Shown here: positions 1 through 52,127 of the stretch, one piece after another
Position numbering within the stretch: position 1 is the first letter of the stretch
How the letters are laid out: the number at the start of each line of letters is the position of its first letter
Assembly: GCF_000002865.3 (NCBI RefSeq)
Contig: NW_001865042.1
Location: forward strand, 1,402,914-1,466,913
Source of the DNA: Monosiga brevicollis MX1
Lineage: Eukaryota
Direction: 5' to 3'
DNA length: 64,000 nt
Position numbers and translations under genes: made by a program
The notes under the pieces: generated by a model
Databases searched by the model: none
What the model was told of the DNA's origin: nothing
The model's input: the letters and a program-made list of their open reading frames with translations, nothing else

Positions 1-79
1 TTGCCGGGCACAAATGGCCAGAGAGGAATTGAATGGCGAATTCTTGATTCTTTTTTATTTTTTTCTGCGCCCAGGCACG

Positions 80-2670
80 TCATGCGGGGTAGGTCAGGCG
101 GCCGGTGCTGGCCATGCGCCGCGCGGTCGGGTCTGAAAATGGGAAGGTTGAGACCACCGTGGGCAAAAAGCGCTTGGCCTGCATGTAGGCGCGAATGTCG
201 GAGCGTTCTTCAAGGCGCGCCAGTGTCCAGTATAGTTCGAGCTGCTGCGGGCCAGACATGTCAACCGCTTGCTTCTGCAGCTGACTTCGCTGCGCAAGGG
301 CCTCTAAATACTTTTGCTCTTCCTCGATGGCTAGATCAACTGGCACGGGCGCACGGCTGCTGGCGGGAGTCGCACGCGAGTTGCGCCGGGCGGAACTCAT
401 GGGGGTATTTGCGGCCGAGCCGCGTCGGCTTGAGGTAGCGGAGCTCCAGTTGTGCAAGGGCGTGTTGACGGCGCTGGCACCATGTGTTCGGTAGCTCCCC
501 GGTGTGTGGGGGGCCAAGGCACCTGGGCCACTGTATGGGGTCCCGGCAACGAGGCCATTCTCTGGCAGGGCCAAGGTTGCGGCAAGCTCATCGAGGCGCA
601 CACGCTTGGGATCTGTTTCATCAGGTTGTTCCAGGACGTCGTCCTCCACACCTTCATCCGAGGCAAAGAGCACACTTTCGGGAAAGCCGGCCGAGAACTC
701 ATCACGGATTTCTGGGTCCTTCAAGGCACGCGGATGTCTGCCAGGGTCAAGATCAACGGGAGCACCAGTGAGGAGTGTAATTGAAACGGTCGGCATCAGC
801 CATGGAGTTGCAGATGTGTACGGACGGGCAAGGCACGTCGGGCGAAGCACGTGAAAGCGACTCGTGCAACATGCCTGGTAGAGCAGTCATGATACTGCCA
901 TTGCAAAACTGCAACGGGATAGCGAGAGTGTGGTAGCGTGCGTGGTCGAAGGCAGTGCGCACGCCAAGTATGCTGGACCTATGCAAACGTCGCACATCAG
1001 ACAAATAAAGATTGGGGGAAAAACTTTTAATGGACTGCCGCTGTGCATACCGCGCTGTGGGTGCTGGACACAAAGAGCCCTTTCTCTTCGTATCCCTGAA
1101 GCAGCTGTCCATTGAATGCGGAGGCCTAAGGCGGAAAAGGGCGACAGCAGAGTGAGTGGCGACACGGGTCAAGGCCGCCTCATGCAAGCAACATCAGCAC
1201 TTGACCGGCGAACAACTTGCGCAGAGTTGCCTGTATACCTGTTGGGCCATGCTTCGAATGACGCTCCTTTGTTGGGAAAGTTTCATATCACTGATTAAAG
1301 TGCGAGACAAGAGTACACAGTCGTAAGATGGGAATTGTGGCCCTTTGTTGTAAGAAGTGCGGGAATGTAGATCGCTGGCGCGCATTCTTCAGCACGGCCA
1401 ATGTAAGACCAGCCATCCGGGCAGGCGTCAATCGAGAACATACTGGTTTTGGACCTCCGGGGCTAAACGTTGCTGCTCGACGAGTTCGGCGGTCCACAAA
1501 TCGGGGTGATGTTGTTTGAGGTACTCGAGGGCATCATCGGTTTGCACGACGGTGACGCCGCCGCTTGCAGCAGCCAGATTGGTATGGATAATGCCTGAAC
1601 GTTGCGCGTAGGCGAACTCTCGGTGCTTGATGACGCGCACTTTAACGTCTGCAATTGAGCCGGCGGCGTTCAGGTCAAGCACAGCGAGCCGAAGGCACAA
1701 CAAGGGAAACTTCCCGTCTTTCCATTTCTTGTGATCCTCTCTGATCGTTTACGAAGATAACATACGAGCGTCACGCATCATCTGCAAAGTCTCATCGAAG
1801 GAACGTCGTAGAAGAAGGCACATGTGGATGAGGGGGGTCATCCACGGGCCATCCCTTTCCTCTTGCGGCCAACGGTACGCGGGCATGATCTTAGACTTGC
1901 GCACGCCCATATCCTCTTGCAGACGAACTGTGGTAGAAGGCAGGCATGAAAAATATGAGCACCGACAGCAGACATGTGCCTGCGCACCGCTGAGCGCGTA
2001 AGGACTGGAGGCTTGAAAGGGGTGTATGAGAAAAAAAAAATACCTACGTTTAGCCCAGCGTGGCTTGGGGATGTTGCCACCGCACGCAACCCATTCGGCA
2101 GCCTTTGTCGTAATGGCTTCCCGAACGACCGCCTTTGAACGCGGTGGGAGGTTCAACGGTATGAGTCCAAGCAGGGTACACAGGAGGGGCACGAAACGAG
2201 CCGTTGAGACGGGTTGAAAGGGCAGGGGCGATGTTGCAGACACGTACGTGAGGGATGCAAGTTTCACGTCGCATGTGGGTCTTGAGGTCTGAAGGGGTGC
2301 GAAAGGTCCGCGAGCACCAGGGCGTTGGACATTGAAGATAGTGCAGGTCAGGTAGCGTACAGAGGAGAAAATCTCGTTGGCTGGTCATTTGCTCACAGGC
2401 GCCTCGGATGGAGAAGCGGGGATCTTGGACAATGGTGTCCATGTATTCCTGGGTGAGAGGCTCGAGGGGGCGCAGCCCCAAGTCACCCTCGGTGCCGGTA
2501 CTAGCAATTGCCTCATCGTTGGTGTCGGCGTGGGCGCCGATGTGAAGAAGATTGGCTGGCCTATACCGGCGCTCGACCGGCTCAGTCACGACGGCGCTGG
2601 CTGCCGTCTCCGCATCCTCCTCAGCCTCACGAGCCGGCGACGCCGAGCGTGGGGATGCTGGGTCCGCCAT
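80..2670 (-). CDS. PHF10/SAYP-like protein with an N-terminal C2HC zinc finger and no PHD fingers (multi-exon)
   Basis: ATG at 2670, zinc finger CPTPWC-x12-H-x5-C at 2257-2331, stop at 80-82 followed by an A-rich tract. Spliced exons give AYRWPQEERDGPWMT...DVKVRVIKHREFAYAQRSGII...GVTVVQTDDALEYLKQHHP...RSMAQQ|ASAFNGQLLQ, which aligns by eye with the PHF10 SAY region (EYKWPPDETG...DLERRDLSHKEKLYL...GLTALRSDEVIDLM...KKAAEFNSNL). Confidence 0.65.
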
Positions 2671-2814
2671 GTGTGTTGCTGTGCCTTGCTCCCTTCAAAT
2701 TCGGCTTATATATCCGAACCACCGCCACCGCCAGCTCCTATCTCCTCGGTCCCAGGCCGCCCCTGTTGTTGACTCTTGCAAGAGCGCGATGAAGCGCGAC
2801 ACTTGAAAGAAGCT

Positions 2815-3152
2815 CAACACACACTCAGAGAGCGCGGCGCAGAGAGAGAGACAGACAGAGACAGAGAGAGAGAGAGAGAGAGAGCCGTTACAAAAACCAA
2901 AAGACAGAGAGAGTTTGTGAGAGAGAGAGTTTGAGAGAGAGAGAGAGAGTTTGAGAGAGAGAGAGAGTTTGAGAGAGTTTGAGAGAGAGAGTTTGAGAGA
3001 GAGAGAGAGAGTTTGAGGGAAAGAGGAGAGTTTGAGAGCTTGAGAGAGAGAGAGCTTGAGGCTTGAGAGAGTTTGAGAGTGAGAGATTTAGAGAGAGAAA
3101 ACGAGAGCTTGAGAGCTTGAGAGCTTGAGAGAGAGAGAGAGTGTGTGTGTGT
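2815..3152. repeat. Compound (GA)n microsatellite with GTTTGA/GCTTGA interruptions, in a divergent intergenic region
   Basis: Directly visible low-complexity tract between two divergent ATGs. Confidence 0.95.
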
Positions 3153-3595
3153 GATACCAAACGATAGAGAGATGTATAGTGTAACATCCGCCACATTTTA
3201 AACAGGTACAGAACCAGTACGGTCAGCGTTGGTGTAGTTAAAACTTCGGTTTGTGCTGAACCGAATAAGGTTTGTGTGTGCTGTCGGCGGTGGTTATTGC
3301 TGCTGATAGTCGAGTTATTGTAGAGGCATTCTAACGGTTTTTCTGTTTTTTTTTTTTTTTCGGGTTCAAAACGGCAGCGACTCGACCCGGGTGTCGGTGG
3401 TGTGGGTGCCGGCGGCGGGTGTTGGAATCGCCTCGCTTGGAGGGGCTGGGGCCAGGAGATGCATGGCGGAATAGCGGTGTCTGCTGCAACAAGTTCCAGG
3501 GGCTGTGCTGAGTCACAACTTGGCGAGGACGGCAATCAATTGTGCCGCCACCTTCGGGCTCACGTCAGCCAGGATACCGCTCGTCCAAGATCAAC

Positions 3596-6500
3596 ATGGG
3601 TGGGCATAGAGCTGAAGTCGCTATTGCGGCATCGGCAGATGCACACGTTGAAGATGAACAGGATGTGGAAACTGTCCAGCTGACTGCCGTTCACATGCCC
3701 ATCTCTACCTATTCTCGAGGTTCCATTGACGAGCTGGAGGTCTTTATGCCCCGGCGCAAAGGTCGGCAAGCCTTGGTCGCCCCACGATTCCTGCACGGGG
3801 ACACACGTGACCCCATGTTGGCAGCCGATGACGTCTTGGAGGATGCTCGTTTTCACGAAGCTGGTTTTCAGCGCCGCTGCTTGGGCCCCAGAATGATGCG
3901 CCAAATTACCGCTCTGCAGCGCCACCACGATGAGCTCGAATTTGTCTGCCCCAATGAAAGCTGCGTCAAAGCCTATCGCTCCTACACCGGCCTCATCAAT
4001 CACATCAACACAGCTGCCTGCAGCACCACTGTGCGTCTGACTCACCATGGCAGAATGTCGCTGTCAGATATCCCATCCTCTTCCCTCTTTTCGCACTGGC
4101 CTTCACACTCATGTCCTGCCTGGCTGGTTGCCCACGGTTTCTCAATCACAGAGCGAGGTGTGTCGTGTCCTGTCCGAGCGCTTCCAACAGCTCAGTCAAG
4201 TACCACCACAGCGCGAAATGCATCTCCGTACGCGTGATCACGATAGTCTGCCTGCCTACGAGCTGGACAAGGTGCCTCATCCGTCCCATCGCGCTGCCAT
4301 CACCAAAGTCCGTTCATCTTGCCATCATCCCCCTATCTTTTTGACTCGGCCCTCCCTTGTGTCATGTTCAATAGAAATGGTGGACACCAGCCCTCGTGGC
4401 TTCGCTGGCCTTGAGCGCAACTCCTGAGGAACTCGTGACGATTCATAGTAGGCTCGCGCTCTGCTCGATGACCATGGCACTTGTGGTATCGACCAACCCT
4501 GGCTTGTTGCTTATTGGCTGCTCCTCGCGCTTGCCTTGGAATGGCAGAAATCCCACACCGCATGGCCTCACCTTCAGAAGTGGCCACCCTTGAAGCAATG
4601 CAGTTCATCTCACCCCTGACCTCAATGAACTGTGAGTTGTGACTTTGCTTGCCATGGTTAGGCTGATCCTGCACGTGGCATGAGCTTGGCTGTGTGGTGG
4701 CAAGCATCAGCGCATGCTAACCAGCCGGACCAGGCCCAGTCCACCCTGACCAGACCCAGTCCACCCTGACCAGGCCCAATTCACCCTGCATCTCACCCCA
4801 TCTCACCTCATCTCACGCCCACGTTTGTTTGAATCAACGTCACGTTAAAAATTAGCTCGGGGCGTGCGTGTTTTTGATGCCGATGCCATCTTGGGCATGG
4901 GTCAGTTCGCTAAGACACGCGCCCGACGAATGGACGAGCTGATGATCCGCCGACGCGACACCAACGAGACAGGCTTGGCGCATACCGCTCACGAGGAGCC
5001 CACGCGCGAGCCCACTGCCCCGTACGTTGGAATGCCTCACAGAACGCGCCGCTTTGAACGTTGGCCCATACTGCTTCCTGGGCACCGTGGCCCCATTGCA
5101 TGCACGATATCCCACACTCATTCACGTGTGACACGGCATGGCGGCATCAATGCGAGATAGACATCTTGTATGGCTTCGTTGCGCCCAGGCCAAGCGTTCC
5201 ATCGCCGCCCAAGCACACGCTTACAATACAGCAATCCTGCATCAGTGCTTGCGCGACAATCGCCGCCATCAGGCCATCGAAACCCAGGTCCGCGCCCCGA
5301 CGTTGCGAGGATGGCTCTTTTTTGTGTTTGCGAGCAACTCAATTTTTATGCTGCGATAGAACATGCAATATTCTGCCGCGCGCCGCGCCAAAATGCTGTC
5401 ATTAATTCAAAGTTGTCGCCGTCCGGTGCGCCTGTTCAAGGAGCAAGGACAAGATGGTGTACTTCGGTTAGAATTGCGTGGATCTGCATGTCTCATCTTG
5501 AGTGGGCTTGTCCGCCTTGTCGCTATATCGACAGCTCACGGGCCCCGTCATGTCAACTTTTGCACGCAGGTTGTTCGGTGACGAGTATGAAAAATATATC
5601 GAGAGGCACCGCGTCGCGCCTCCTGAGGCTGCTTCAGCGCCGACCAGCGCGCTATCGTATTTGAAAAAAGCCAAGCATGTCTTTGACATTCCCCAAATCA
5701 CTCGAGATTTGGTGCTGCGACGTGCGCACGAGCGTGCACTCACAGTCCCACGCGTAAGTCGACCCAAACTCATAATTCGGATGTACGGTCTGTCATCTTG
5801 TCTGACAAACCTGGTCGGCAACACTAGATCATGGCGGTGCCGCGGCCAGACGACGTGTGCACCGTCTGCCAGCGCAAGGGGCTGGGTGAGGGAGCGCCGC
5901 ACATGCAAGAGATGCTGACGTGTAGTGTATGTGGTGGCACGGGACATCCCAGCTGTCTTCGTTTGCCAGAGGAAGCAGTGTACAAGATTCGTACATACGA
6001 ATGGCAATGTATGGATTGCAAGGCCTGCGGCATATGCGGCGACTCGACTGACGACGACAAATTGCTGTTCTGTGATCAATGCGATCGTGGTTATCATACT
6101 TTCTGTGTGGGCCTTCACCACACGCCGCGTGGTAAGTCCATGCCAGAGCAGTTGAGGCCGTACCTACAAACCCATGGTGACTGACCCCATTTTGTGCCTC
6201 CGTCATAGGTCGATGGGTGTGTGAGGCTTGTGGCCAGTGCGACTCGTGTGGTGCAACTGATCATCACGGGGACAAGTGGCACCACGTGGTACGTGGCATC
6301 GTTTCCTTGGGCTGCCGATCATGTTCCTTGCAGGTGATGCTTTACGCATCTCGTTGCGCATGCTTCACGATACTCCGTCTCTCCTCTCGCTTATCGCTTA
6401 GACTCAGAAGGAAGCGGATGGGAGCAAACGTTTCATTGTTACCGTCTGCAAGCCTTGCCACGTTCAGTTTGATGCTGGGCACGTCTGTCCCGTCTGTGTC

Positions 6501-6856
6501 AAGGCCTACGATCCTGACAAAGACAGCGCAGCATTGGTTCAGTGCACCATATGCGAACGAAAGCTCCACCAAGGTATGCACACTTTTTTTGCCCCGGGGT
6601 GTGTGCGTTGCTAATCCGTTTGTTTGACTGCGCTTTCTGTTGCGTGCAAATCTTTTTTTCAAAAATCCCCGACGCTGCCGGGGCTCCCATAGCTTGCGAA
6701 GCAGACACGCCGCCAAGTGACACACCAGAGGGTTTGGGATCGATTTACTACTGCTCACTTTGTCGGGGCCTGAAGCCGGATATTTACGATGCCCATCATG
6801 CACGCAATCGACGCCAAGCGACAGGAGCAGCAGCTGCGCCCGGGAACTCGGCATGA
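3596..6856 (+). CDS. PHF10/BAF45-like protein: zinc finger, SAY-like region, double PHD finger and a further PHD (multi-exon)
   Basis: Zinc finger CPNESC-x12-H-x5-C at 3947-4021 and RSIAAQAHAYNTAIL near 5195-5240. The double PHD reads CTVC...CSVCGGTGHPSCL...YEWQCMDCKACGICG...LLFCDQCDRGYHTFCVGL...GRWVCEAC, followed by CPVCVKAY...VQCTICERKLHQACE...YYCSLCR. GT-AG introns link the exons. The upstream part of the model is less certain than the PHD part. Confidence 0.7.
4719..4816. repeat. Intronic minisatellite (about 20-nt ACCAGACCCAGTCCACCCTG, about 3 copies, then CATCTCACC repeats)
   Basis: Direct tandem copies are visible. Confidence 0.8.
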
Positions 6857-7040
6857 GGGGAGTGCGTGTGCAAAGTGAATACCTAAAAATTGAACATTGC
6901 ACTAGTCACCGACTCGTGCAGTCTCCAATCATCGCCAACACGAAAAAAACAAAGCAAAAACACACAAGACTGGTCGCTTTGGGGATACCCCGAGGGGGGT
7001 TTGAAGGTTGCGGGGCGGCACCCAAACTGCCTGTCAATGC

Positions 7041-9441
7041 TTACGCATCCGGCTCAGGAAAGCGCTCACTCCACGTTTTCAATACGGGTCTTAAAACTTC
7101 TGGCGCGTTGTTTGACTTTTTCACCTGCCAGAAGAGTTGGCTAGCAGCTTGGATGATATCGTCCGCTTCAAGACCATCCCGGATGTTGTTGGCAATCTAG
7201 AAGCGCACAAAAGCACAGAATATCAGGCAAGGTGTGGCACGTCGGGTGCTAGCCTGCCAGTCCTGGCCTGGCCTGTGTTTCCCCTCTCGGTCCACCTGGA
7301 GTGCAAGCAGGATGATATGAAACATACCTGCAATACGATTTCCGGCTGGGGATCATCTAGTGCCATGAGGGCGTCGCGCTGAGAGCGCAACATGGCCGCA
7401 CAGATGAAAAGCTGAAATTGTGAAGAGAGATGCTGCGACCATATGACCTGTCACAAGGCAAGGAATGAGCGAGCCATGTTTTTGACCGAGCCAGGAAAAA
7501 AAAAAAAAAAAAATAATAATAAAATAAAATACACGAGCCAGTCGATGCACAACACAGCAAAAAGCGCGCACTCTTGAACCACGCACCTCCCAAATTTTAC
7601 GTGCACCAGAGACGTCAAAGTCGCGTTTGAAAAAGACCAGGAGCCAGCGCAAGCAAAACAGAAAATGGGTGGAATTGGCTCGCTCAAGCTGATGCATAAG
7701 GTGGGGGTCCACAAACCGAACCAACGTGGACACGAGCTTCAACTGGTTTTCAATGCCATGCTGATCAAAAGCATAGAGCGGTTCGAGGTCCTCCATCCAG
7801 TGTGCAAAGGCCCAGAAAGTCAAGGCTTCATCCCGAAATACAAGCCAAAGGGCTGATGCGATATCATTCATACCCTGAACGTAACCTACGGCATCGAGTG
7901 TCGTGTGACGCGAAAGCCGAGAAAGAGGGAGCGGCGGAGTCGCGAGGCAAGGGGTGGCAAGCTTAGGGCGCAAAAGTTGCGCAAAGGCGGTACAGAGGCA
8001 TAGTACAGCAGGCGCACGCACCGAGGTCAAAGTTCAGCATGAGGTAGGCGAGAAGAAGCTCGCGGACGGCCGTGAGGCCTGCTGAATCCTCGTATTTGAA
8101 TTCTGGCAGGTGGCGATCTGTTCGGGGCACGTCCTTGTCAATGCTGTGGATCATTTCGCGTAGACGTGAATTGCGAGCGAGTTGATATTCGGATTGCGTC
8201 TGCCATTGGGTCTTGAGAAGTTGATAGCGCTCGCGTTGATCCTCCATCTCTTCGGCGGTTGGTTTCATGGGTTGTTGTAAGAAGAAGCGCCAGGCAAACG
8301 GCCGAGCCTCATCTTGAAGGGTGTGATCAAACACTGCGCGACGAAAATCTGCTTCATCCTTGAGTTGACCTTTCTCGTCAAATTGCTGATGCACCTCTTC
8401 CAGAGTAAGCGGCGCCAGACGGAGACAAGCAGGGGGCTCAGGTAGCTCGTGAATCTCCATCACATCAAACTCGCCGAGATCGTTTTGGGTTGTATGCCGA
8501 CAGACAGCGTCTCCCGAATCATCGGCCGCGGTAGGGGTCTCTGGTTCATGCATGACAGGGTCGAAGAAATTTGTGGTGTTGATGACGTTGTCGGGGTTCA
8601 TCATACGCGAAAAATACTGGTTCAACTTGACAAAAGGCATGGCCCATTGATGCTGCGCAAATCAAAGACAAGTTGGAGGTTAGCTGAACAAGCGAGCCAC
8701 TCAAAAGGTCCGCTGTGACTGTGCTTGTCGTCCGAGTCATCATCCAAGTATCAAAGTGGGGTGCGTGCAAGGGCGGGCGTGTATGGAGGCCTATTGGCCC
8801 TTGGCAGGAGCGCACGACCTACCGAATGCACACCCACGGATTGTGCTTTGCGAGCAAATTTGGGGTCAGCGGTTGCTATCCACTTGAGCAGTCGATCGAC
8901 ATCTTCCTTCCCCTTGGTAAAAACGAGGGGGCCAAAGGTGCCTCGGCGTTCAGAGATGATGATGAGCTGGTTGCTCTTGGGGCATTGGTAGCCCGTGACC
9001 TCGCTGACGGGGATCTCGTATTTGATCACGCCGAGCGATGCCGCCTCCGAAGCCTGAACCGCTCGCCAGCGCAGCTCCATGCGACGGCGAGCGCCGCCAT
9101 CAGTCTGAGGGTTGTCAAGAGGCTCCATCAGTTTGGTCGAGAAAGGTCGGCCAGCGGGCCCAGAACAGAGGCGTGGGTGGTTCTTCTCGACAAAACACGT
9201 TCGTACAAGCACGTACCACACGCAGAAGTTGGAGGCAGCCCTGCACGGGGGGTCGCTGCAAGTTGACGGGGTCAGATTCGAAACAGATCTAAATGCAATG
9301 CAATGCAGTATCAAGTGCTTTGTGAGAATCGCACTCGTAGGCCTGGTCTGTGCTTACCTTGCCCTTCGCGAGGACAAGGTGAAACCACCATCAGAGCATG
9401 TTGGAGGCCAGCACATCTACCTTCTCGTCCTTGTCCACCAT
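7041..9441 (-). CDS. TBC-domain Rab GTPase-activating protein, TBC1D15/17/Gyp7-like (multi-exon)
   Basis: Contains the TBC catalytic motifs IDKDVPRTDR (arginine finger) and YVQGMNDIAS (glutamine finger), plus FCLRWLLVFFKRDF and an N-terminal PH-like segment. Stop TAA at 7041-7043; the start is uncertain. Confidence 0.88.
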
Positions 9442-22486: not shown

Positions 22487-25400
22487 ATGAAGGTCCGCGT
22501 GCCTGAAGACCGCCGCAGTCTTGAGCTGGTAAGTTTGCGATTTGATTTTGATCGGTGGCCTGCGATACACCTCACACGCACGCTTCTGCCGCTCGTGATC
22601 TTACATGCTGTGACTGCATGTTGGCGCAGACGGAAGGTGCGTTGGAGGTCTACAATGATATCGTGCAGGCCAAGGACGAAGACCTCCTTCACGTCTTGCA
22701 GCGCATCGACGACGTCCCGCGCTCGCGCGTACGTTGAACTCGTCACCGTTGAAACATGCTCGGGTGCCCACAATGAGCGGAGGAGTCACTCTGTTGCCTG
22801 GTTTTTGACTGCAGGATGACGTGTACAGCTGGGCTCCTTGTATCGATCGCCTCGATGCGATCTTGGAAGACTTTGCTTCTCAACTACCCTATTACACGGA
22901 CACCGCGCTCCGCAGCAATCAGTTGCACACAGTGCCTTTGCCCTTTATTCAATTCCGTGATGAGGTTTGAGTCCCGCTCCAAGTCCCATTGTTTGGACAT
23001 CCGGGCCAGCGTGGCTTCATTTGCGTGGCGCCTTTGGTCTTTGCAATAGGAGCAACGTCAGTTGATTTTGGCGTGCCTTCGCGTTGTGCGCCTGATTTTT
23101 GAATCTGTGGCCACAAAGCATGTCTCGGCGTGGCCTTGCACCAAGGTTGGTGCCAAAAATATGGCTTGTAAATTGTGTGTGTGTGTGCGTGTGTGTTTGT
23201 TCCCTTCTTTTCCCATTCCCTTCCCTCGTGCATGCGCAAGCCCTTCTCGATCATTATACAACTTATTCTTGTGTTTGCCGTTCGAACCACACCGTGGTTG
23301 AAACATAGCTTTTGTTCGCGTTGATGAATACGGATGATTGCGACTTGATGCTGGCCGTGGTGCATCTCCTCGCCACTCTGGGGCGCCATCGCGAGATTGA
23401 CGATCGTGACCTGGACGCCCTTCTTATTGCTCGCTTGCAATGTCTGGCCAAGGTAAGCCAATAACCTCCAGTTTGACCTGGAGGCGACGTGCTTGCCTCA
23501 CTCAACTCATCGCGTGATGATAACATGCAACGGGTCATCGCATCACTTTTCCCCATACTTTTAGAAATGGGGGCGTGGCGGTCATACCCACGTTTTAGTG
23601 GACATTTGCTTGAAGCCGACGGATGAGTTTCCCGAGGGCGTCTCGGATGCACAGATGGACCTCTTCATCAATCAAGGAGACGACCCCACGGACGCGGCTC
23701 GTCAGGGACCCCTCAGCATCCGGCGCCCGAACCTCGATGCAGACCCACGACCAACGCGCAAACTCTTCGAGGACTGCTTGGCTGACTTCAAAGTGCCGCC
23801 CAAGTACCATTTTGAGCTTCTTTTCCAGTTGCTAGTTCGACACAACTTTCACAGACTCGAGGAGCGCCGCAAACTTCTCCAAATTCACATCCTGGCAACC
23901 AGCGCCTTGGTTATGTGCTCGGCCAACGGCGGCTACGATGCCAGCGGTATCGCAGCAAATTACGCCGCCAGTCCCTCCTCTGGGGTCTCGGAACTCGTTG
24001 AGATGCTTGGCAACAACGACATTCCAGCCATCATTCGAGTGGCAGGCTTTCGCCTACTGCAGTCCCTGATTCAGGCACAAGTGGCTGCCGAAGCGGTACT
24101 CACAGAGTGTGGCGTGGGTCAATCGCACGGCTTGATCCCCACCCTTTTGAGGCAGATGAACGAGCGCCTCTCACCCTCGGAGGGTAGCAAACAGGCCGAA
24201 CCCCTCGATGATCCGATCGAGCAGCGCTTCTATCTCGGTGTCCTTTCGGTCGTGCAACTGATTGTGGCCTTTCCTCGTGGTGGTCAGAGCTTTATGCGCT
24301 CTGGCGTACTCAGAACCCTCTCCAATATCCTCAAGAACCCAGTGAATGTGAAGTTCGCCACCCGTGCAGCGCGCACGATTGAGAGCATCCTGCACATTGC
24401 CAGCGTGGATCGCCATGGACCTGAACTGGTGGATACGCGCATCTTTGAGTCCACTCTGGAGACGATTCATCAACAGGTGCTGGCTGCCGTCGGCACGGTC
24501 GAAGATGACCACCTGCGCCGTTCCGTATCCCATGTCATGCACCAAGTCATGGATCAAGTGGCGCCCGAGACTCCATTGGAGAAGAGCACTCCTGCAGCGC
24601 AGGGCAGCGCAATCCTTCAAAGTCAAGCGGCCATCCCGCTGTCTGCAGAGCGTAAATCACTTCTCAAGATGCTTTTGCGCCTGCATTCTCAGTTGGGCTT
24701 TCGGCAACCTTTTGCCACGCTACAGCGCAACGCGCTAAGCGGCACCCTTTTGGCCGACTTTGATGCCATTCTCCGTAACGAACAGGCCTTTGGTACCCCG
24801 GTTTGGTGCCTCGTCACGCGCTGGCTGATTGACTTTGCTAATGCAGAACCCAATCTCGTTTCAGTACTTCAGGAGTCGGGTATGCTTGAGACTGTGCTGG
24901 ATGTCATTCGTGAGCGACGCATCCCTGCCTCTGCGGATGCCATCGTCAGCTTGCCCTCGGTGCTCTCATCCCTGGTCCTCAATGGACAGTTGCTTGACGT
25001 GCTGGAGGAGGCCCGTCCTTTTGATGCGATAATCGAGCTCTTCACGCAGGAAAAGTACCGCGTTTGTCTTGGTGGTGATAATGCAAGCGCCGTGGGCGCC
25101 GCCCTGGACGAACTCTGGCGTTACCAACCGCGTTTGCGTCCCGCGGGCATGGCCGCTCTGCAGACGCTTCTTGACAACTTGATCGCCAAGGGACGTGATA
25201 GCGGGCAGTACCTCATCACCCCGGGTTCAGATGCGGGGTTGAAGCGTATGCGTAAGACTCGTCTCGAGGAAGGCCTCACAGAGCAAGAGCTCGGTCGCTG
25301 GCCAGAGGACGGCTCACCTACTCCTAGCACGGCTATGGAGGTGGACAGTGGTCCTTCCCCGGCAGTCGCCTCTGCTTCATCATCAACTGACACGCGCACC

Positions 25401-28400
25401 CATTTGCCCCTGTTGGATTACATGGCCAACGCTGCTCACTTGATCGATGCGATGCAAAGCAGCAGTCCGCACGATCATCACACCAGACATCTGGCCCAGG
25501 CCGACGTGGCATCAAAGCTCATGGAGCTTCTGACCTTACCCACCTTGCCGTACGATCTGTACGAGTCGTCTTGCTTCAAAGCCGTAGTTTCAGCAGCGAC
25601 TCTCTCGGCCAATCATCCCGACTACGACTCAGCCGCGCTTCATGAAGCGTTCAACCGAGAGGTGACGGCCATGGATGAGCGCTGTGCTGAGCTCCTCAAA
25701 ACTCCTAGCAACCACCTGGTGCCCAACATTCTACAGAGCTTTGAGTCTTGGCAGCTGGCTTGGACGCGGCTACTGGCCTATCTACAGCTCTATTCGAGCA
25801 TTGTGAACAGTCGCCCTGCCGCGCGAGACCACTCCGAGCGACATTCTGCACTCTGGGCCAAGTTGATGAATATGGGCATCATGCCACGTCTAGGCCGAGT
25901 CATCAATGCAGCGAGTTGCCTAACATCAGCGGCCCGCCGCGTGTATGTTCCTTTCCAGCTGCGGACCAAGCACTTGAAGCTGCGAGCTGAACGAGAGGCC
26001 TTGCTCACGCCAGGCACACAGTACTTGGACATTTACCGGCTGTTTGGCTTGGCTGATCTCTTGAAACACGCTCGTAGCTTTTACGTCAAGTTTCTGGAGC
26101 GATCCCTGTCGCAAACACGTGCGCGTCACCTCATGATGAGTCGCCGCCGTCCTTCACAAGACAAAAACGAGGGCGTCATGTCTTTTGTGATTGAACATGC
26201 CGTCAACAACCTGCAAGGCTGTGTCACGGCCTTGCAAGACTCCCCATCTCTGCGCCACCTGGACAGTCTGCACCATTCCATTCTTGTGGCTCAAGAGTTG
26301 ATTTTTACCTTTCGCTCAGGCCAGATGCAATCGGAGGATCAGCGTGCACTTCAGCTTTTTGCCGAAATAGGGGGTTTCCGTACTGCTATGAGCTGTCTGA
26401 CGTCCCTTGTCCAGCTCTTTGGGCAAAGCGTACCTGATCACTCGGGCCTATCACAGCCTGACCCGGACTCCACGTATGTGCCCAACCCGCGATTCGGTGT
26501 GGCGGACTGGCCGACAGACGTTAAGGTGCGGGTTGAGGTACATCCCCACCCCCTGCGTCTGATGGACGCCATTCGCGTGCAGCCGACATCTTCTGGAGCC
26601 TGGCGCTGTGATCTCTGCGATACGAATCGCAATGATCGCTTTGCTTGGCACTCAGAGGTGCAAAACTACGACCTCTGTGCCTGGTGCTTTCAGCGTGGCG
26701 TAGCTTGCTACGCACAGCGGCGTTACCAAGATGACTTGCGTGAGCTACTCAACTGCTTTCGTACACTCTTCGACGTGAACCTGGCGGAGGGCGCATCAGC
26801 GAGCGACGTTCAGCACCTGCGCCTGATGGAGCGCGAAGGCATCTGGCGTGAGCTTATTGAGCAACTGCAATTGCTTTGGACGCATGACAGCATTCGCTTC
26901 GCATCGCTTGAACTTCTGGAGGGGCTCTGCCTCTTGACTCGCCAGTTGTTTCATACCTGCGCCCGCTATGAGGAGATTTCCAAGTCTCATCGCGCTCGTG
27001 AGAGCCGTGCTCGTGGTGGCTTGACCTCTTGGATGGCTGCTACCAATCCCGGCGAGGAGCAGCCCATTCCCGGCAGCCTTTTCTTTGATCATCTCTTTGG
27101 CGAACGTCAAGCCGCACGCAGCAGATTGCTTGGGGACATGCCTGCATCCGGTCTGGGTGCTCTGGCTGGCTTGAGAACACCAGCTGCACCGCCACCTCCC
27201 CCCGAGGTAGAGGTTGACGAAGAGTTGGTGCGTCACATTCAGGAGATGGGCTTTACGGCTTACCAGGCTCGCACAGCGCTGCGTCGTTCGCGCAACGACG
27301 TGTCTGCCGCCGTCAACATTATTTTTGAAGGCACAATCCCACCGGATGATCCCCAGCCTAACCGAACCGCGTCGGCTTCGGCGACTGCACCCAGCACGAA
27401 CGAAGCTTCCAGTGAAACAGGTGGCAATGTGGGAGGGGGAGGAAGTGCTGCTGCGAATACCGACCTCTCTGCCGACTCAGCACAAGCCACCGGGGCCCAG
27501 CCTGAGCCCGAGCAGCCTGAAGCCCAAGGCGAGGACGAAGACCAGGACGAGGAGGATGAAGCTGCCATGTTTGCGCGTGCAATCGCCATGTCCATGCAAG
27601 GAGGTGGTGCAGAGGCAGGTTCAAGCGCTGACGAGGGCCCGAGCGACAGCGCAAATTCTTCTGCGACCAATGCTGCCGATCAGAGTGCTCCTCGTGCCGA
27701 AGAAAATGCCGCATCGTCAAGTCAGATGGATACCGCCGCCGACAACGACGATTCCAGCCCATCTGTATCTCGTCGTCTATTGTCCATGCCACGAGGTGGT
27801 GATGACCCGGACCAATCTTCTCGCGAGGAGCAGCGGGTTGCACAAGAAAAAGAGCAAAAAGTTCACGACGAACTCAAGGCTGCCATGTCTTCCTTGGCTA
27901 AGGGCAATTTCGATACCATGCTTGCGGTACGTTGCTGTGTGTGCGGAATCATACCATGTGCGCACGCTCTTCTCTTCTCTCTCATGCGGAAATTTGTTAT
28001 TTCGTGTCTTGCACTCACTCGCTTCGACTTCCCTTCGATCTGCGCCTTGGGTTCTAGATTATCAGCGCGCAACCTGTCATCATCAACACGGTGGCATCAT
28101 GGGTCATGTATCTCATCTCGCATGACTTGGATGGGACCGGCGCCGAGCTTCGTCTTGATTTGCAAAACAAGGTCAAGGCATTGTTGGATGAAGAGTTGGC
28201 TTCACTTCAAGGCGCTGCCTTTGATTCTCTGGTATACAGCAGCACGAGTCGCCATCTCGACGTCATGTTGCGCCTGTACCTTATGGTGACTTCGGGCAAG
28301 ATTGAGGATCTTGCCTCTTTGGCCGAGAAAGTTCTGGATTTGATCCACGCTTGCTCTGTGCCCAAGGATCGAGTAGGTTGTCCGGTTTGGTTAGCCTCAG

Positions 28401-31400
28401 CTGTTCTCCTGCTGGATCAACTCGAGCGCTTGCAGCGCACGGATCAAGTGGTGGCTCTAGCACGCCGTCAAGCCGCTGCCGATCACCGTCCTCACATGTG
28501 GCAGTTTGCCCATCAGCGCAACACCTGGCGCACTATGTGGAGTGACTACAACGAAGCCTCACAAATCAAATTGGAACTGGCATACAGCAACATGGCAACG
28601 ACGGTGGACCTCGAGGTTGAAGGGCGGCAATATGCCGTTGATCTCATGGCCATGCAGCAGGTCAACAAAACCACGGGCTCTGGGCGTAGCGTGCGACGCA
28701 TACCCATGCAAGATGCTTCCCAGAAAGCCGCTGATTACGTTTTACCGGAACTTGTGGGTCCCGCGGATATGGAACCTACATCGCAGCCCGTCTGGTGCCA
28801 TGCAGCGCCCGTGGTCACTCAGCTGGCTTCCTGGCTCAGCTGCCAGCTGGACCATCCCACTTCAGACGCTATCCTACGCCTTTTGATCCGTGTCACGCGC
28901 GATGTTGAGCTGGCTCAAGCCTTGGTGGAGTCGCCCGGGTTTGCTGAGCTTCTTGATATCTCGCAAGGCCAAGTTTATACTGGCTTTAGTGCTTCCTTGG
29001 CTCTCCTGCTGCGTCATGCAGTCGAGGAGCCTCGGGCACTGACGGCACACTTTGCTGAGACTTTGGCCCAGTCGCAAGCCCTGCGTAACGGCGCCACATC
29101 CAATCTGGAACAGCTCCTGCGCAACTTCAAGCCTCAAGTGTTGCGTGACACACCAGCCTTTGTGGAAGCTTGCGCCCATGTTCTGAAGTTAAAGGAGGCC
29201 ACCACACAAGCGCAAAACGCCTCGGTGTGCCTGCGTGGCAACCCAGAACTTCTTTGGAAGGCTTGTGGCGAGTCCCCAGCGCAACAGGCCGTCTGTGAAC
29301 GACTATGTGTGGTGCTGGCTGCACGCTACGATGACATGCGCGATTGGCACGAGAAGAGCCAGCTTCGCGAGAACCACGACGGAAGCCTCTTCCCCATTCG
29401 AAAGCCCACCAGCGCCGAGACAGAGCTTGAAATCGGCGCTCGCGCTTCTGCAGTCAAAGCCATTTCTCTGCCAAAGGTGCTCTCTTATATTGCGGAGCTG
29501 GTGGGCACCTACAAGCACGTCGGGCAAACTTTGTTGCACTGCAATGTGCCCCTCTCCTCGGGCTCGGTATCTCTGATTGCCTTTGTCATCCGACACATCA
29601 TTTTGCGCAAGAGTTTTGTCAAAGTTGAGCCTGGCACCGTGGGTGCCGAGGTGCACAGCGCCGCGATTCAGCAGGCCAAAAACATTTTGCACAATTTGGT
29701 AGCCGCCGGTGATGCAGCCGAGGAAGGTGTGGTGCGTGAAATCTGTGAACAATACCGAGCTATGGACGCTTTGGCCGTTCATATGCCCGTCATTGACCAG
29801 TGCGAGGCCCTGAACCTCTTGGTGACGGACATTTGCAAGAACGTGGCACTCGCTGGCCGCCGGTTCGTGGCGGAAAAACTACCAGAAATCATTCTCGAGG
29901 CAGCCGTGCAACAAGATTTGAACAATCCCAAGATGGATTATTTTGTCGAATCCGTCGCAGTCGTGCTGGAGCAGTTGACGCGCCATGCGCGCCCCGCCTG
30001 GGTGCAAGCTGCCAAGATGGCTGATGTAAGTAGACTGCATTAGTTGTTCCTGACTGAGCTTGCCATGGGTGACATTTTCTTGTGTCGCACTTTTTAATGC
30101 AGTTGAAGGAATTGCTCACCTCACATTTTGCTACCCCGCTCTACCGCACCTCGCCCGTTTTCCTTTGTAGCGAAAGGCACAAGGCGTGGCCACCGAGGAG
30201 GATGATTTTGCTTCACGTACCGTATCAGACGCCTTCTCTGCTGCAATGGAGTCCATGAGTGCCATGGAGCGAGGAGGGGCTAACGCTCGCGGTCGCGACG
30301 ATGCTGACTTGATGGATCAGTCGCAAGATTACGGCCATGATCACGAGGACCACGATGAGGAGCAAGACGAGCATGGACATGTAGAAGAGGAAGACGACGA
30401 CGATGAGCACGACGGGGATGGTGCTGATGATGACGACAACGATGATGATGATGATGATGATCATCATCATCATCACGACGACGACGACGGTGACAACGAT
30501 GATGGCGAGGATGGGCCAGATGGCGAAGCCCAGGATGAGTTCGATGCCATGCTGGTTCGGGGAATTATCGACGCTATGAATGCTCGTGATGCCAACGGAG
30601 AGGATGGCCCCATGGCAATGGAGGTGGAGGTGGAGATTGCTGGCCCAGGGGACGCTGGAGCAGCCGGATTTGGCGAAGGCTACTACGAGGATGAGGACGG
30701 CGACGACGCGGAAGACGATGACGATGACGTTATCGATGAGCGCCACCACCATCACCGTCGCCACCACCATCATGGGGATGACGATGAAGCCGACGATATG
30801 CAGCCTGCGGATGATGACGTGCTGGACGACGGGGCAGTGGAGGTTGAGATCTACGAGGGCGCTTCTGAGGACGGTGGTGAGGGCGAGCAAGGCTTTGATG
30901 ACATGGACTTTGATGAAGATGAGGATGAAGATGATTTAGAGGATGAGATGTACTTCCGGAGTGGCATGGAGGAGGAGTCCTATTACGAGGACGAAGAATT
31001 CGATGACTTTGTCAACTTGCACGCCGATGATGCGGAGTTGCAAAGCGAAGCATCTAACGACGAAGAACCAGCTCTGGACTTTGAGGACGCACATGCTCTT
31101 CGAGACCCTTGGCATCGGTCCGAGCTCAACCTTGGTATGGGAAGTGGCCTTCATCGTCGCAACGCCCAGCGCCGCCGAGGGCATCCTCTGGACGTCCGAC
31201 GTGAACAAACGACCAACGCCAGCGCCGAAGCCGAATTGCCAGCCATGCATTCCATGTTGGCAATGTCCATTAACCGTGGGGGTGGCGCCATGGCAGAAGC
31301 CACAAGCAACCGCGCGCGTGGCGGAGCCCGTCGTGATGAGCGCGCGTTGGCAGCCGTCCAGGAGCTGCTTCGCAGTGGCCAGCTGGATGGTCTACGTCGC

Positions 31401-32481
31401 ACCAACCGCGCCGCCGACGTGCACATCTACGATGGCAACAATGAGCCCATGATTGCGCGCGTGACCGATGGAGGTCTCAATGTGGAGATTCGAGACCCCA
31501 ACTCTTCACAACGCCCTGTGGTACAGCGACCCACGCCCGAGCAACGACTCAAGACAGAGATGGACGTCATCGAGGGTCCAGTGGGCCCTTCTCTTCAGTA
31601 TGCATGCTTGCAAGTTTTTGTGCGCTTGACGAAACGGTTTCGTGAAGATCAGGCGAAAGCCTCGGCTGAGCGCGAGGCCAAAGCCAAGATTGAACGTGAA
31701 GCCAAAGCCGCGCAGGACAAGGCTGCCAAGGAGGAACCACGCGACGCTGCTCAGGAGACTGAAGCCACGTCATCAGCCACTACAAACGGTGAAGGCGCGG
31801 CTCCAACCGAAACCGCGCCTTTGACCGAGGTTGGAGAATCTGAGCCTGCTTCTGTTTCTCCGTCAGGGCAAGACCAAGAAGGCGTGCGCGTTTCTCGTGC
31901 CGAGCCAGAGCCTTCAACTGTGGGCAGCGAGGAAACGGCAAGTGCACCGGATGATGCCACCGCGAGCGTGGCCGGCACTGCTGTTGCTTCAGCAACAGGT
32001 GCATCCGCGGCCCCGGTGGACAGCTCAGCAGCCGTTCCACCTGGTGCGGCATCTGGAGATCCGCCACTCGAATACGAAAATGAGCTATTGTCCTTGCTGC
32101 CCGAGGACATTCGTCAAGAGGTACTCCAGGCGCAGGCCATGGTGCGAGAAATGCCGCAACTGCCTGTTGAGACGCTGAACTGCTGTAATCCAGAGTTTTT
32201 GGCGGCTCTGCCGCCAGACCTCCAGCGTGAGGTTCTGGCACAAGAGCGCCAAGCACTGGAGCGTATGCGCCGCGAGCAACAGGCTAACGAAGGTGGCAAC
32301 GAAGCAGCTGCAGGCTCGGAGCACAGTGGACCCGCTGAAATGGACATGGCCTCGATGATTGCGTCCCTGGATGACAATTTGCGGCGCGAGGTGTTGCTTG
32401 AACATTGTAAGTCACACTGTTACATTTTTATGGCGAGTATTATCTGGTCGAGACTCTGCTCGACAAACGATGAAAATGTGC

Positions 32482-32540
<59 letters not shown>

Positions 32541-35500
32541 GGGGGGGGGGGGGGGGGGGGGGGNNNNNNNNNNNNNNNNNNNNNNNNNNNNNNNNNNNNN
32601 NNNNNNNNNNNNNNNCTGAGCCCTTGCGTATCGATTCTCAAAAATTGCCTGTGCACGTTTTGTTGTTGCAGCAAACGACGAAGCATTCTTATCTCAATTG
32701 CCGCCCGCCCTTGCCCAAGAGGCGGCTTCCTTAATTAACGCACGGGAACAGCATCAAGCGCGGCATCGAACTTCAGCGCGACCACTCCCGCGTGAAACTA
32801 ATCGGGGTGAACCTCATGATCATCTGAGAGATCACCGTGAAGAGTCCAGGCACTCGGCAATGCGTCAATCTGCCAAGGATCGCCTGCCAAAAGACGGCGT
32901 GGCGGTCTTGGATACCGAGTCCATTGACAAGCTGCTCTATTTGCTGATCGTACCGGCAGCTTACAATGAGACCTACCTGGCTCGGACCTTTGCGAATTTG
33001 TGCAGCCATTCCAAGACGCGGTACCAAGTCCTGATCTCATTGTTTGCCATTTGTGATGCTCTCGGTACGTGCCTGGGCAAGCGCACGCTAGCCCCCCTTG
33101 CCTGCTGTTGCACGTTCTTTCCTTTGTTACTCGCACTTTTCTCACCGCCGGCTTATTGACCATGCTGGTGAAAATGGCTGTACGTGTCGACTTTACAGTG
33201 TCAGATGTAGAAGCTGAAACGGGCCGCGTAGAAGAGGCCAATCCAACGCTCAAGCTGTTTGTGGTGCGCCAGAATGGCAAGGCGCGTTTTGCTGCCGGCG
33301 TTCACGTCGTCATGCGAGCCCTAAACATTCTCAACTTTGTCGTTCGACACTGCCCACCGGCCGTGGATATGATTTTGGGCACGACCCTCTCGCGATCTCT
33401 GGCCGTTCCTGAGGGCTGCCAGTTGTGGAACTCCCTGTTTGCCTTTGCCACTCGGCACGGCGAGCCCTCTGCGGCCTTGAGCCGCTTGCTGCAAGATCAC
33501 CGTTCGCGACGGCGCCGTGGGCGCGTGAGCACCTCGGGAGCACGCCCTGCACTAAGGATCCTGTTGGACACGAGCAAGGCGCCTGTGGAGACGCTGCGGA
33601 GTATGTGTTACCAGGTGATCCGGTTGCTAAGTCACGTTTTGTCTGCATTACCAGATGCTGAGGCCCGCGCCAAACACGAGCATAGCGTCCTTCAGTGGCG
33701 TGAAAAATACCCCGACGAAGCTGCGAGCGTGGATGAAGAAACCACTCCGACACGCACGCGGTCAGTCAAGCGTCGCCCCCACCAGCCTCCGCCTATTGCG
33801 CCTCCGATGGCGGCGACCGAGACAGATATTGATAGCCTTTTTGAGCTGATTTGCCAAAGCGCCACCTTCAACGTTTCGGCTTCGCGCGACCACAAGATGG
33901 TCACGCCACTGCTGTACAACGCGGAGAACCACCAGCTGGTCATTGATGCTCTGCATCGATATCTTGACATTTGGAAGGATGCCGTAAATGATGACATTGG
34001 CAAGCTCGAAGCGATTGTCTCTTTGCATGAGCAGACGCCGCCACGTGGGCGCCCGCAGCCATTGCAGATGGGGCCCCAGCGGCTTGAGGATTCACCCGCT
34101 TTGCGCAAGCACTTGCAGGACATGACTGCACCGGGTGCGGCACAGCGGATTTTGTTGCGCTTGTTGCGACTTGTCAACTTTCTCAACGACAAGGAACTTT
34201 TGCTTTGCAAGAGCATGGAGACGCCCAAGGCCACCGAGCCGGAAACCAAAGAGGCTGCGGCGGGCAACAGCGCTCCCGTGGAGCCGCCGACCGATTCGAC
34301 CGTCCCCGAAACTCCCACAAGTACGCCGGCACGCGGAGCATCAACAGGTGCTTCCACATCCAATGCAGCCACTGCATCGCACGGAGATGACGCAGGTGAG
34401 ACCGAGGCTCAAGGCGACCAACCCGCCGAATCCGCGCACCAACCCGGGGATGACCAAGCAGAGAAGGACAAAACAACGGCCAAGTCATCAACTGTACCAA
34501 GCACGGCCGATTTGATTTCCAAGTATCGACCACCACGTTCAGTGATTGAGTTGGATCTCGATCAGCTTTGGACCACTGTGGGCCACTGTCTCATGTCTTT
34601 CAACAAGTACGACGACAGCATTCAGATTCTGAGCACCTTGCAGCCTCTTATCGAGGCCTTTTTGTTTTGTCATCAAGATGTTGTAGCAGCGGCGCGGCTA
34701 GCCGCACCGCCTTCAGCCAACTCCGTGGCTGGGGCTGGTGACAAGAACGGGTCTGGAAGCCGCACCAGCTCGGCCCCCTCCACGCCGGTGGGTTTGGCCC
34801 GGAGCTATTCATGGACCACGGCAATGCCTGGCCAATTATCTGCCCCCAACGATCGCGAGCTGCGCTTTTTGCAGTTTCTCGAAGCCCACGCAAGTGTCAT
34901 TAATGACATTGTGCGCAAGCGGCCCGAGCTCCTTGGCAAGCGTCCATACAGCTTGTTGACGCGATTTCCCACTATTTTGGATTTCGAAGTGAAAGAAAAG
35001 TTTTTCCGCAAAAAGATCAAACCAGATCGCCACCGTCGTGTGCCACTGCGCATCCGCCGTGACTACCTCTTCGAGGATTCTTACCAGCGCGTCATGCAAC
35101 TCAATGCGGGTGAGCTGCGTGGACGTCTCAACGTACAGTTCCAAGGCGAGGAGGGCATTGATGCCGGCGGTCTGCTTCGTGAGTGGTATTACACGATTTC
35201 GCAGTCGATCATGAATCCGAACTACGCCCTCTTTTGTCAGTCGACCCCGGGTTCAGAAACGTATCAACCGAATCAGCACTCGTCCATCAACGTCGATCAT
35301 CTGCGTTACTTTCAGTTTTGCGGTCGCGTGGTCGCAAAGGCCATCTTTGATCATCAGCTGCTTGATTGCCATTTTACCCGCGCCTTTTACAAGCAAATCT
35401 TGGGTATGCACGTGTCATGGCGTGATCTGGCGGCCGTTGATTCGTCTCTCTACAAAAATCTCCTTTTCATCCTGGAGAACGACGTGACGCCTTTTGAGGT

Positions 35501-36350
35501 GTGTTTTGCATTATCTGGCCGTGCCTGTCGCGTGTTCTGTTGAATTGGGTTTGAGCTTGTTCGTGTTTGCTTGCTTGTTCGTGTGAGCTTACTTTGCTTT
35601 GCTCTTTTTCCAGGGTGATTTCACGTTTTCTTTGGACGTGGACCGATTTGGCAAGTTGGAGACGATTGATCTCAAGCCCGGGGGACGTGATTTGAACGTG
35701 ACTGAGGAGAACAAGAAAGAATACGTGCGCTTGGTCGCGGACATGAAACTGACAGAGGCCATCAAAGATCAAATCAAGGCCTTCCAAAAGGGCTTTTACG
35801 AAGTTATTCCACAAACTGACATTGCACTCTTCAACGAGTCGGAGCTCGAGCTTTTGATTTCTGGTCTGCCTGAGGTGGACATTGACGACTTGCGCGCCAA
35901 CACGGATTATCACTCGGGTCTCTCGGCAAGCACGCCAGTCATCCAATGGTTCTGGCGCGCGGTGCGCTCCTTCTCGCGTGACGAGCGCATCAAGTTGATT
36001 CAATTTGTCACGGGCACTGGTCGCATCCCCGTGGGTGGCTTCTCCAAGCTAGTTGGCATGAGGTGAGGCATCCTTTTCCCATTCTACTCCTTTGCTCGCA
36101 AAGCAACGCGCGAGTGGCTTGCCATCGTGCGTGCGTGTGGTCCTTATCCATTTAATTATGCAATTTCGTCCCTCACTCTCACGCTGCCGTGATCGATCGC
36201 CGGTGTAGTGGGCCACAAAAGTTTAACATTCAAAAGGATCGGTCCGGCCCGCAGCGATTGCCTCAGGCCCACACTTGGTACGTAGTCTGTTTCAACCCCA
36301 CACACCGCTGGATCGTCGTAACTTTGGCATATTCATGTTATTCTTTGGTC

Positions 36351-52095: not shown

Positions 52096-52127
<32 letters not shown>

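Follow-up and report, generated by a model that had tools for sequence, protein, structure and literature searches.

The question raised by this locus is whether two neighbouring genes of Monosiga brevicollis encode, as separate transcription units, the forms with and without PHD fingers of a PHF10/SAYP-type SWI/SNF subunit that vertebrates make as isoforms. The genes lie at the left end of a 64,000-nucleotide stretch of contig NW_001865042.1 (the window, from whose first letter all positions are counted) and form a divergent, head-to-head pair with start codons 925 bp apart. An earlier note on this DNA had placed the pair in a unicellular relative of animals and read it as an old inverted duplication acting as a reader-on/reader-off switch. 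The organism, a choanoflagellate, is such a relative, and it is near certain, as regards both identity and structure, that the two genes are members of the PHF10/SAYP family (BAF45a, or 'SMARCG'). That these head-to-head paralogs would also be alternative occupants of one SWI/SNF slot is a statement that, taken as a whole, we regard as reasonably probable.

Transcript evidence for the pair comes from contigs of four public runs, including X1, X3 and X4, mapped onto positions 1-7400 of the window. X3 and X4 belong to one study, their RNA nature being a guess by the tool, and X1 is probably DNA; we take X3 and X4 to carry spliced transcripts, because their contigs leave out stretches with GT..AG ends (GC..AG in a single instance) that X1 covers collinearly. 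Depth in these contig-based runs does not rank the expression of one gene over the other and was not used to do so. The plus-strand gene starts at 3596, stops at 6856 and encodes 671 amino acids in 12 coding exons (3596-4030, 4152-4271, 4375-4447, 4548-4631, 4856-5021, 5161-5287, 5360-5466, 5570-5753, 5828-6131, 6209-6288, 6402-6573 and 6693-6856) separated by 11 introns, all GT-AG. Ten of the joints are present in both X3 and X4, and the remaining intron, 4632-4855, was deduced from record length and is confirmed by a loose end of 14 letters at 4631, whose only match is 4856-4869. A single X4 contig runs from 3376 through every exon of this gene to 7196, and thus the region 3596-5500 is joined to the PHD exons; its first piece (3376-4030) supplies a 5' untranslated region, up to the contig end, of 3376-3595.

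The minus-strand gene encodes 587 amino acids in 8 coding exons (2248-2670, 2048-2132, 1766-1927, 1444-1648, 1239-1290, 1051-1125, 875-978 and 80-737, in order of transcription) with 7 introns, and its frame is uninterrupted from 2670 to the stop codon at 80-82. Introns 738-874, 979-1050 and 1126-1238 are listed as joints in the RNA contigs, and a fourth, 1291-1443, is implied by the mapped pieces. The remaining three, nearer the start codon (2133-2247, 1928-2047 and 1649-1765), and with them the exons 2048-2132 and 1766-1927, were deduced from a record length of 246 nucleotides, from depth fractions of 85, 162 and 166 nucleotides in three bins and from strong splice donors; this upstream model was selected on those three grounds, and the open frame that results verifies it. 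Intron 738-874 is of the GC-AG type (joint 737/875 in X3 and X4; CT..GC ends on the plus strand) and shifts the frame into the last exon, so that it and exon 875-978 alter a naive reading of the long open reading frame 80-886 while leaving the stop at 80 unchanged. The 5' untranslated region spans 2671-2825, up to the RNA contig ends (X3 and X4 pieces 2247-2825). The RNA contigs of this gene pass the stop at 80 and extend 409 nucleotides (X3) and 1842 nucleotides (X4) beyond the left edge of the window; this run-on need not be coding, because the plus-strand contig likewise merges into its convergent neighbour, and alternative minus-strand isoforms with PHD exons left of the window may exist. 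The picture drawn by the earlier note, of two divergent genes about 925 bp apart, is thus borne out: both exon chains are transcribed and spliced, the minus-strand coding sequence ends at 80, and the open frames have 671 and 587 codons.

The C-terminal half of the plus-strand product bears on its family. A double PHD finger (DPF) is encoded at 5858-6231, interrupted by intron 6132-6208 (Pfam PHD 3e-16 over two stretches, PHD_4 2.8e-8), and is followed at 6232-6763 by a zinc knuckle and a third PHD finger, the latter with a weak Pfam PHD match (E 0.012) on the exon at 6402-6572, and then by a conserved C-terminal motif, YDAHHARNRR (about 6785-6814). The DPF scores 167 bits against a 35-sequence PHF10 profile, and the minus-strand protein reaches 26.9 bits, significant matches of the kind that the earlier note's family assignment predicted. 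The DPF exon (5828-6130) has 54 database matches: 26 bear the name PHF10 or PHF10-like, 7 an uninformative name and 21 no name, and no match is labelled as another family. Within the PDB, human PHF10 is the nearest match of the DPF (95.4 bits), ahead of DPF2 (93.4 bits) and DPF3 (92.4 bits); as this lead is narrow, the DPF alone leaves the family unsettled. Blastp alignments extend to residues 657-659 of the plus-strand protein, across the knuckle, third PHD finger and terminal motif, for P0038, P0001, P0002, P0042 and the sponge PHF10-like protein P0035. Of these, P0038, a 704-residue protein from a public run assembly, aligns with the plus-strand protein over 639 amino acids at 28% identity and with human PHF10 (7Y8R_R) at E 4e-51, its SAY residues 226-434 falling on 76-271 in addition to the DPF. 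The knuckle and third PHD finger of P0038 (residues 587-704) also resemble PHD3 of MLL1 (39 bits), and a KMT2D chain aligns with its residues 487-689. Bilaterians may have lost an ancestral triple-PHD form of PHF10. A search of a protein atlas with the finger and SAY part of P0038 gave best scores of 0.83, below the informative level.

A search of 5.8 billion proteins with plus-strand and not minus-strand exons returned no protein identical to the PHD exon or the first exon, and exon 1 has no match among longer proteins; the collection does contain the phenylalanine hydroxylase of this genome. The public annotation of the plus-strand locus seems to be missing or fragmentary. Table S1 of PMC11678306 gives MONBRDRAFT_15569 as a double-PHD gene of M. 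brevicollis, which may be this locus.

A SAY region had been claimed for both proteins by the earlier note. For the minus-strand protein the claim holds: against a SAY-only profile of 37 animal-type sequences, searched among 4005 targets, it reaches 35.7 bits (E 1.5e-9), where none of 2000 shuffles exceeds 6.5, each of three sub-regions exceeds 1000 of 1000 shuffles, and the hallmarks YxWP, A-x-[FY]-N and YPVA-x-L all lie within the match. Trichoplax PHF10 is matched with a Smith-Waterman z of 12.1 and a blastp E of 1.5e-5. The domain occupies residues 187-369 (with YRWP and YPVAVL motifs) and is encoded at 737-1877 on the minus strand by five exons and the first base of the last. Its central exon has no PHF10 match among PDB sequences, the only return being an unrelated chain at E 1.6, because the exon is too short for a single-sequence search. 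The plus-strand protein carries a degenerate, apparently SAY-derived region at about residues 146-370 (4152-5466, plus strand), recognised by Smith-Waterman comparison and by collinearity in a multiple alignment, and here the link runs only through intermediates. The part between its finger and its PHD module gives z 6.0 against P0038 and 5.8 against P0001 (0 of 500 shuffles each), and the two intermediates themselves score 94.3 and 71 bits, respectively, with the SAY profile; the N-terminal half as a whole is 24% identical to P0038 over 250 amino acids (39.3 bits). Since the minus-strand SAY domain is clear, and the plus-strand region resembles that of P0038 and of P0001 significantly and collinearly, both genes appear to derive from an ancestor that combined a finger with SAY.

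The finger in question, with the pattern C-x4-C-x12-H-x5-C, is common to both proteins with identical spacing, as had been noticed at the outset. It lies at residues 118-142 of the plus-strand protein (3947-4021; Pfam zf-C2H2 weak, E 0.25) and at residues 114-138 of the minus-strand protein (2257-2331; zf-C2H2 E 2.6e-5, 24.9 bits against a cut-off of 25.2). Of 62 proteins scanned, the pair and P0038 alone have the pattern ahead of a SAY region; the one other match, in P0004, sits within a PHD finger. The finger-bearing N-termini of the pair align with a Smith-Waterman z of 8.6, a score that 0 of 500 shuffles reach, and the finger region of the plus-strand protein gives z 11.3 against P0038. 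The finger of d4 proteins, a Krueppel-type C2H2 finger between Requiem_N and the DPF, is not what we find here: the Monosiga finger precedes the SAY/Req-like segment and ends in Cys (C2HC).

A second shared element is the 15-residue motif to which the earlier note had drawn attention, and 8 of its 15 residues are indeed identical between residues 305-319 of the plus-strand protein (5195-5239) and residues 304-318 of the minus-strand protein (1099-1256; coding 1239-1256 and 1099-1125). In the latter gene the motif is split by intron 1126-1238 and spans the RNA-verified junction 1239/1125 (joint 1124/1238 in X3 and X4). Both copies align column for column with residues 149-183 of Trichoplax PHF10, a segment that Pfam DPF1-3_N matches weakly (18.3 bits, below cut-off), and the plus-strand copy retains the A-x-Y-N core, with E-T-Q where the family has D-x-Q-T. 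From these alignments we infer that the motif probably corresponds to the Req helix of PHF10 and DPF2. In the human PBAF structure described in PMC9741621, the Req helix of PHF10 packs on the SWIRM domain of SMARCC and on RPT2 of SMARCB1, that of DPF2 docks the same way in BAF, and an extension of the helix (eReq) touches ARID2 at its ARID domain; that structure does not show the winged helix or the PHD fingers of PHF10, the PHD fingers being flexibly tethered. Requiem_N (PF14051) itself has no match in exon scans at E<=1 or in the motif exons at E<=10, a test limited by the intron within the minus-strand motif, and Pfam at E<=10 returns nothing relevant on the motif exons.

Several features bear on how the pair arose. 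Compared as whole proteins, the two products are 22% identical over 222 amino acids (blastp E 5e-4), and no similarity between the genes is left at the DNA level (best E 0.097). The intron that follows the finger occupies the identical alignment column and has the same phase in both genes, and four further minus-strand introns share the phase of a plus-strand intron within 1 to 8 columns, so that five of seven correspond. In a SAY tree of 19 rows and 201 columns the two proteins form a clade with support 97/93, on terminal branches of 4.95 substitutions per site for the plus-strand protein, the longest in the tree, and 2.23 for the minus-strand protein, the third-longest. The intron correspondence, the clade, the adjacency of the genes and the erased DNA similarity all fit the old inverted duplication proposed earlier; on the simplest and most likely reading, the duplication was local, and the copies then diverged asymmetrically and in complementary ways. 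The ancestor would probably have carried, in order, finger, SAY, double PHD, knuckle and third PHD finger, an architecture that is intact in P0038. One copy, now on the minus strand, would then have shed its entire PHD module and acquired a new tail, acidic, Ser/Pro-rich and helical, while keeping SAY; the other would have kept all of its PHD fingers, with a SAY region evolving at about double the rate. The proposal of a reader-on/reader-off pair therefore stands in part. PHD fingers are confined to the plus-strand gene, but the pair is not simply one protein with and without readers, because the PHD-less copy has the conserved SAY domain and the PHD-bearing copy a degenerate one; to judge from the sequences, it is the PHD-less copy that has kept a conserved SAY, and the copies are asymmetric.

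Pfam finds no PHD finger in any exon of the minus-strand gene, and outside the plus-strand gene the best tblastn match to PHD sequence in the 64 kb has E 0.083. The last exon (80-737) encodes instead an acidic stretch (17 D/E in 60 residues), a Ser/Thr/Pro-rich stretch and a mixed-charge C-terminal region, with no known domain, in keeping with the acidic, Pro-rich ending described before. Pfam returns no match for the whole exon at E<=1 and none for its last 106 residues at E<=10. A search of 1.84 billion representative proteins matches it only to P0061, a repetitive protein resembling carrier proteins, which we regard as spurious, and thus the 218-residue tail, acidic, Ser/Pro-rich, helical and lineage-specific, is without a detectable homologue. 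A metagenome scan with the PHD exon yielded seven loci, among them an animal-type PHF10 (L002) and a short contig (L001) 61-63% identical to the plus-strand gene; none of the seven holds anything similar to the minus-strand protein, and the scan is therefore uninformative about conservation of the arrangement.

How might two such products be used? By homology, the SAY/Req region would anchor the subunit in the SWI/SNF base, and the PHD fingers would form a tethered reader of histone tails. Because both proteins retain a Req-helix-like segment, either could fill the single SMARCG slot of a PBAF-type SWI/SNF base module, and the outcome would be complexes with or without a tethered histone-tail reader. 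Alternative occupancy is favoured by known pairs: PHF10-P and PHF10-S, the vertebrate isoforms with and without PHD fingers that the earlier note had invoked, are confirmed by PMC4111760, which describes both as PBAF subunits that do not co-precipitate each other, and the fly proteins dd4 and toothrin are both BAP-associated (PMC11678306). We infer incorporation into SWI/SNF, mutual exclusivity and any regulatory meaning from sequence, and the occupancy mechanism taken by itself could about equally well be right or wrong. A more specific version, in which the PHD-less copy would be the structurally competent SWI/SNF subunit and would compete or be exchanged with its PHD-bearing partner, the anchor of the latter having weakened or co-evolved, is tentative, and we lean against it.

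A number of observations weigh against alternative occupancy and the history proposed for it. Against the animal SAY profile the plus-strand protein scores only 7.2 bits (E 0.79; 3 of 2000 shuffles higher), 345, 209 and 56 of 1000 shuffles score as high as its three sub-regions, and its SAY region gives z 1.3 with Trichoplax PHF10; because no sub-region exceeds its shuffles, the docking ability of this region may have been lost or altered. Directly compared, the post-finger parts of the two proteins are marginally similar (z 3.2, 8 of 500 shuffles as high). Long-branch attraction is possible in the clade that unites them, since it joins the longest and third-longest terminal branches. Neither protein contains a psi-K-x-E sequence of the SUMO type present in PHF10-S, whose PDSM reads psi-K-x-E-x-x-S-P. 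The winged helix INI1_DNA-bd (PF21459), present in the animal PHF10 matches P0045 and P0009, has no match at E<=1 in either gene in an exon-by-exon scan, which an intron-split domain could escape. No orthologue of the minus-strand architecture is found among the 1.84 billion representatives searched with the last exon or in the seven metagenome loci. Head-to-head neighbours less than 1 kb apart are, moreover, unremarkable in a compact genome.

These weaknesses invite other readings of the pair. The copies could have specialised for different complexes, one for ARID2-type and the other for ARID1-type SWI/SNF, with the divergence of the plus-strand SAY/eReq region an adaptation to the other ARID partner; the strong asymmetry of SAY divergence would be expected, eReq-ARID contacts decide between PHF10 and DPF according to PMC9741621, and Table S1 of PMC11678306 gives a d4 copy number of 0 for M. 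brevicollis. Against such specialisation, which we consider unlikely, the plus-strand DPF is slightly nearer to PHF10 than to DPF2 or DPF3 by the PDB scores above, and Requiem_N finds no match. A somewhat smaller chance attaches to the plus-strand protein having left SWI/SNF, to act as a free-standing triple-PHD reader or in another complex, with the minus-strand protein the only remaining subunit. A SAY region that is significant in no sub-region, beside a partner conserved throughout, is what this would predict; yet the region remains collinear with those of P0038 and P0001 at z 6.0 and 5.8, and the protein keeps the A-x-Y-N core, the E-T-Q, the finger and its spacing.

Complementary degeneration and adjacent divergent transcription could also be read as the marks of a split subunit, in which the two proteins associate, for instance through the N-terminal finger region, the minus-strand protein anchoring and the plus-strand protein reading. 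The same docking-type motif is present in both copies, however, suggesting competition rather than cooperation, and the mammalian PHF10 isoforms do not co-precipitate each other (PMC4111760); we consider association very improbable. Least credible of all is that the minus-strand gene is a transcribed but decaying duplicate without function: it has lost its PHD module, gained a tail without homologues and carries an unusual GC-AG intron, but a frame of 587 codons remains open through its 8 spliced exons, SAY is better preserved in it than in its partner despite a duplication old enough to erase DNA similarity, and it has the shorter terminal branch.

Between the genes, 550 bp (2826-3375) separate the RNA contig ends, a gap that may or may not act as the shared promoter supposed by the earlier note. 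Tandem Repeats Finder identifies a GA-rich compound microsatellite in this interval (2841-3142), where all contigs break and all four runs show summed depth in the thousands and many loose ends; this type of repeat is apparently spread through the genome and here disrupts both DNA and RNA assemblies. At the other end of the plus-strand gene lies a convergent RabGAP-TBC gene (7196-8661, minus strand; Pfam RabGAP-TBC 8.5e-23 and 2.4e-9). X3 and X4 contigs bearing the 3' exons and untranslated region of the plus-strand gene reach 7196 and then cross a minus-strand intron at 7197-7327 (CT..AC), so that the two genes overlap, or at least meet, at their 3' ends. Farther along, the window contains a giant HUWE1-like HECT E3 ligase gene (23565-35543, plus strand; DUF908, DUF913, UBA, WWE and HECT) with an assembly gap, a run of N, near 32.6 kb; a second run of N at about 17.8-18.0 kb leaves X in the translation of an open reading frame. 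Two adjacent frames with TerD domains, a family better known from bacteria, occupy 42656-44381 on the minus strand (2.5e-20 and 4.2e-8), and there are a MAD1-like mitotic checkpoint frame (48964-49815, plus strand) and a reticulon-domain frame with a long repetitive N-terminus (54194-56170, minus strand). The phenylalanine hydroxylase gene (50650-52638, minus strand) has exons 100% identical to M. brevicollis MX1 MONBRDRAFT_31770, which identifies the organism, with mismatches only where alignments run into introns, and its next named match, from Salpingoeca rosetta, is at 74%.

The PHF10/SAYP family and the principle of paralogs assuming isoform roles were known already; a choanoflagellate SAY domain, the finger-SAY-tail architecture and a head-to-head complementary pair appear to be new. 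SAY domains have been described as found only in metazoan PHF10 (PMC9170682), in a main text that names Capsaspora and no choanoflagellate. Full-text literature searches returned PHF10 and Monosiga together only in a paper stating that Monosiga double-PHD genes are non-homologous to D4, and no paper pairing PHF10 with choanoflagellates, nor any such paper among the best matches listed for a mixed search. With a statistically clear SAY domain in Monosiga, PHF10-type subunits must have originated before animals and choanoflagellates diverged. If the more specific version of alternative occupancy given above is correct, reader-less PBAF-type complexes would, like the SAY domain, predate animals, and fly toothrin and the isoforms of vertebrates would have answered one need repeatedly. 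The pair also adds a third independent case, after PHF10-P/S and dd4/toothrin, of a BAF45-family subunit with and without its reader module, which lends weight to the view that SWI/SNF assemblies lacking the reader serve a required function and are not splicing noise, and it offers separable genes for testing such assemblies genetically.

Set beside these known systems, the Monosiga pair resembles PHF10-P and PHF10-S in that SAY homology, direct for the PHD-less form, can be traced in the PHD-bearing form through P0038 and P0001, and in that one form has a double PHD finger towards its C-terminus that the other does not have. It differs in consisting of separate, highly diverged genes rather than splice isoforms, in a C2HC-type finger where the animal proteins have a winged helix, in the extra knuckle, third PHD finger and degenerate SAY of the PHD-bearing form, and in a 218-residue novel tail on the PHD-less form, where PHF10-S ends in the 6-residue PDSM SUMO motif. 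In the d4 (DPF1-3) family, toothrin is a DPF-less paralog of dd4, and the takeover of former isoform roles by paralogs has been proposed by the authors of PMC11678306. There, as here, a separate gene for the DPF-less form exists beside the DPF-bearing one, but d4 is a sister family with Requiem_N in place of SAY, and toothrin arose by retroposition and has non-overlapping introns, whereas the Monosiga genes share intron phases and lie head to head. Drosophila SAYP, or e(y)3, is the founding SAY protein, a Brahma-associated coactivator with C-terminal PHD fingers (PMC3424582, PMC3315317). It is encoded by a single gene, and we liken it by description, not by sequence. The fly protein is also much larger. 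The plant proteins TPF1/2, a SMARCG-class SWI/SNF subunit with three PHD fingers (PMC9170682), share that number of PHD-type fingers with the plus-strand protein and differ in having a Tudor-like C-terminus and no SAY; this likeness, too, is one of description rather than of sequence. A further counterpart is P0038, in which a finger precedes SAY and is followed by the DPF, knuckle, third PHD finger and C-terminal motif, and which differs in uniting in a single protein, with two additional N-terminal fingers, a well-conserved SAY and the full set of PHD fingers.

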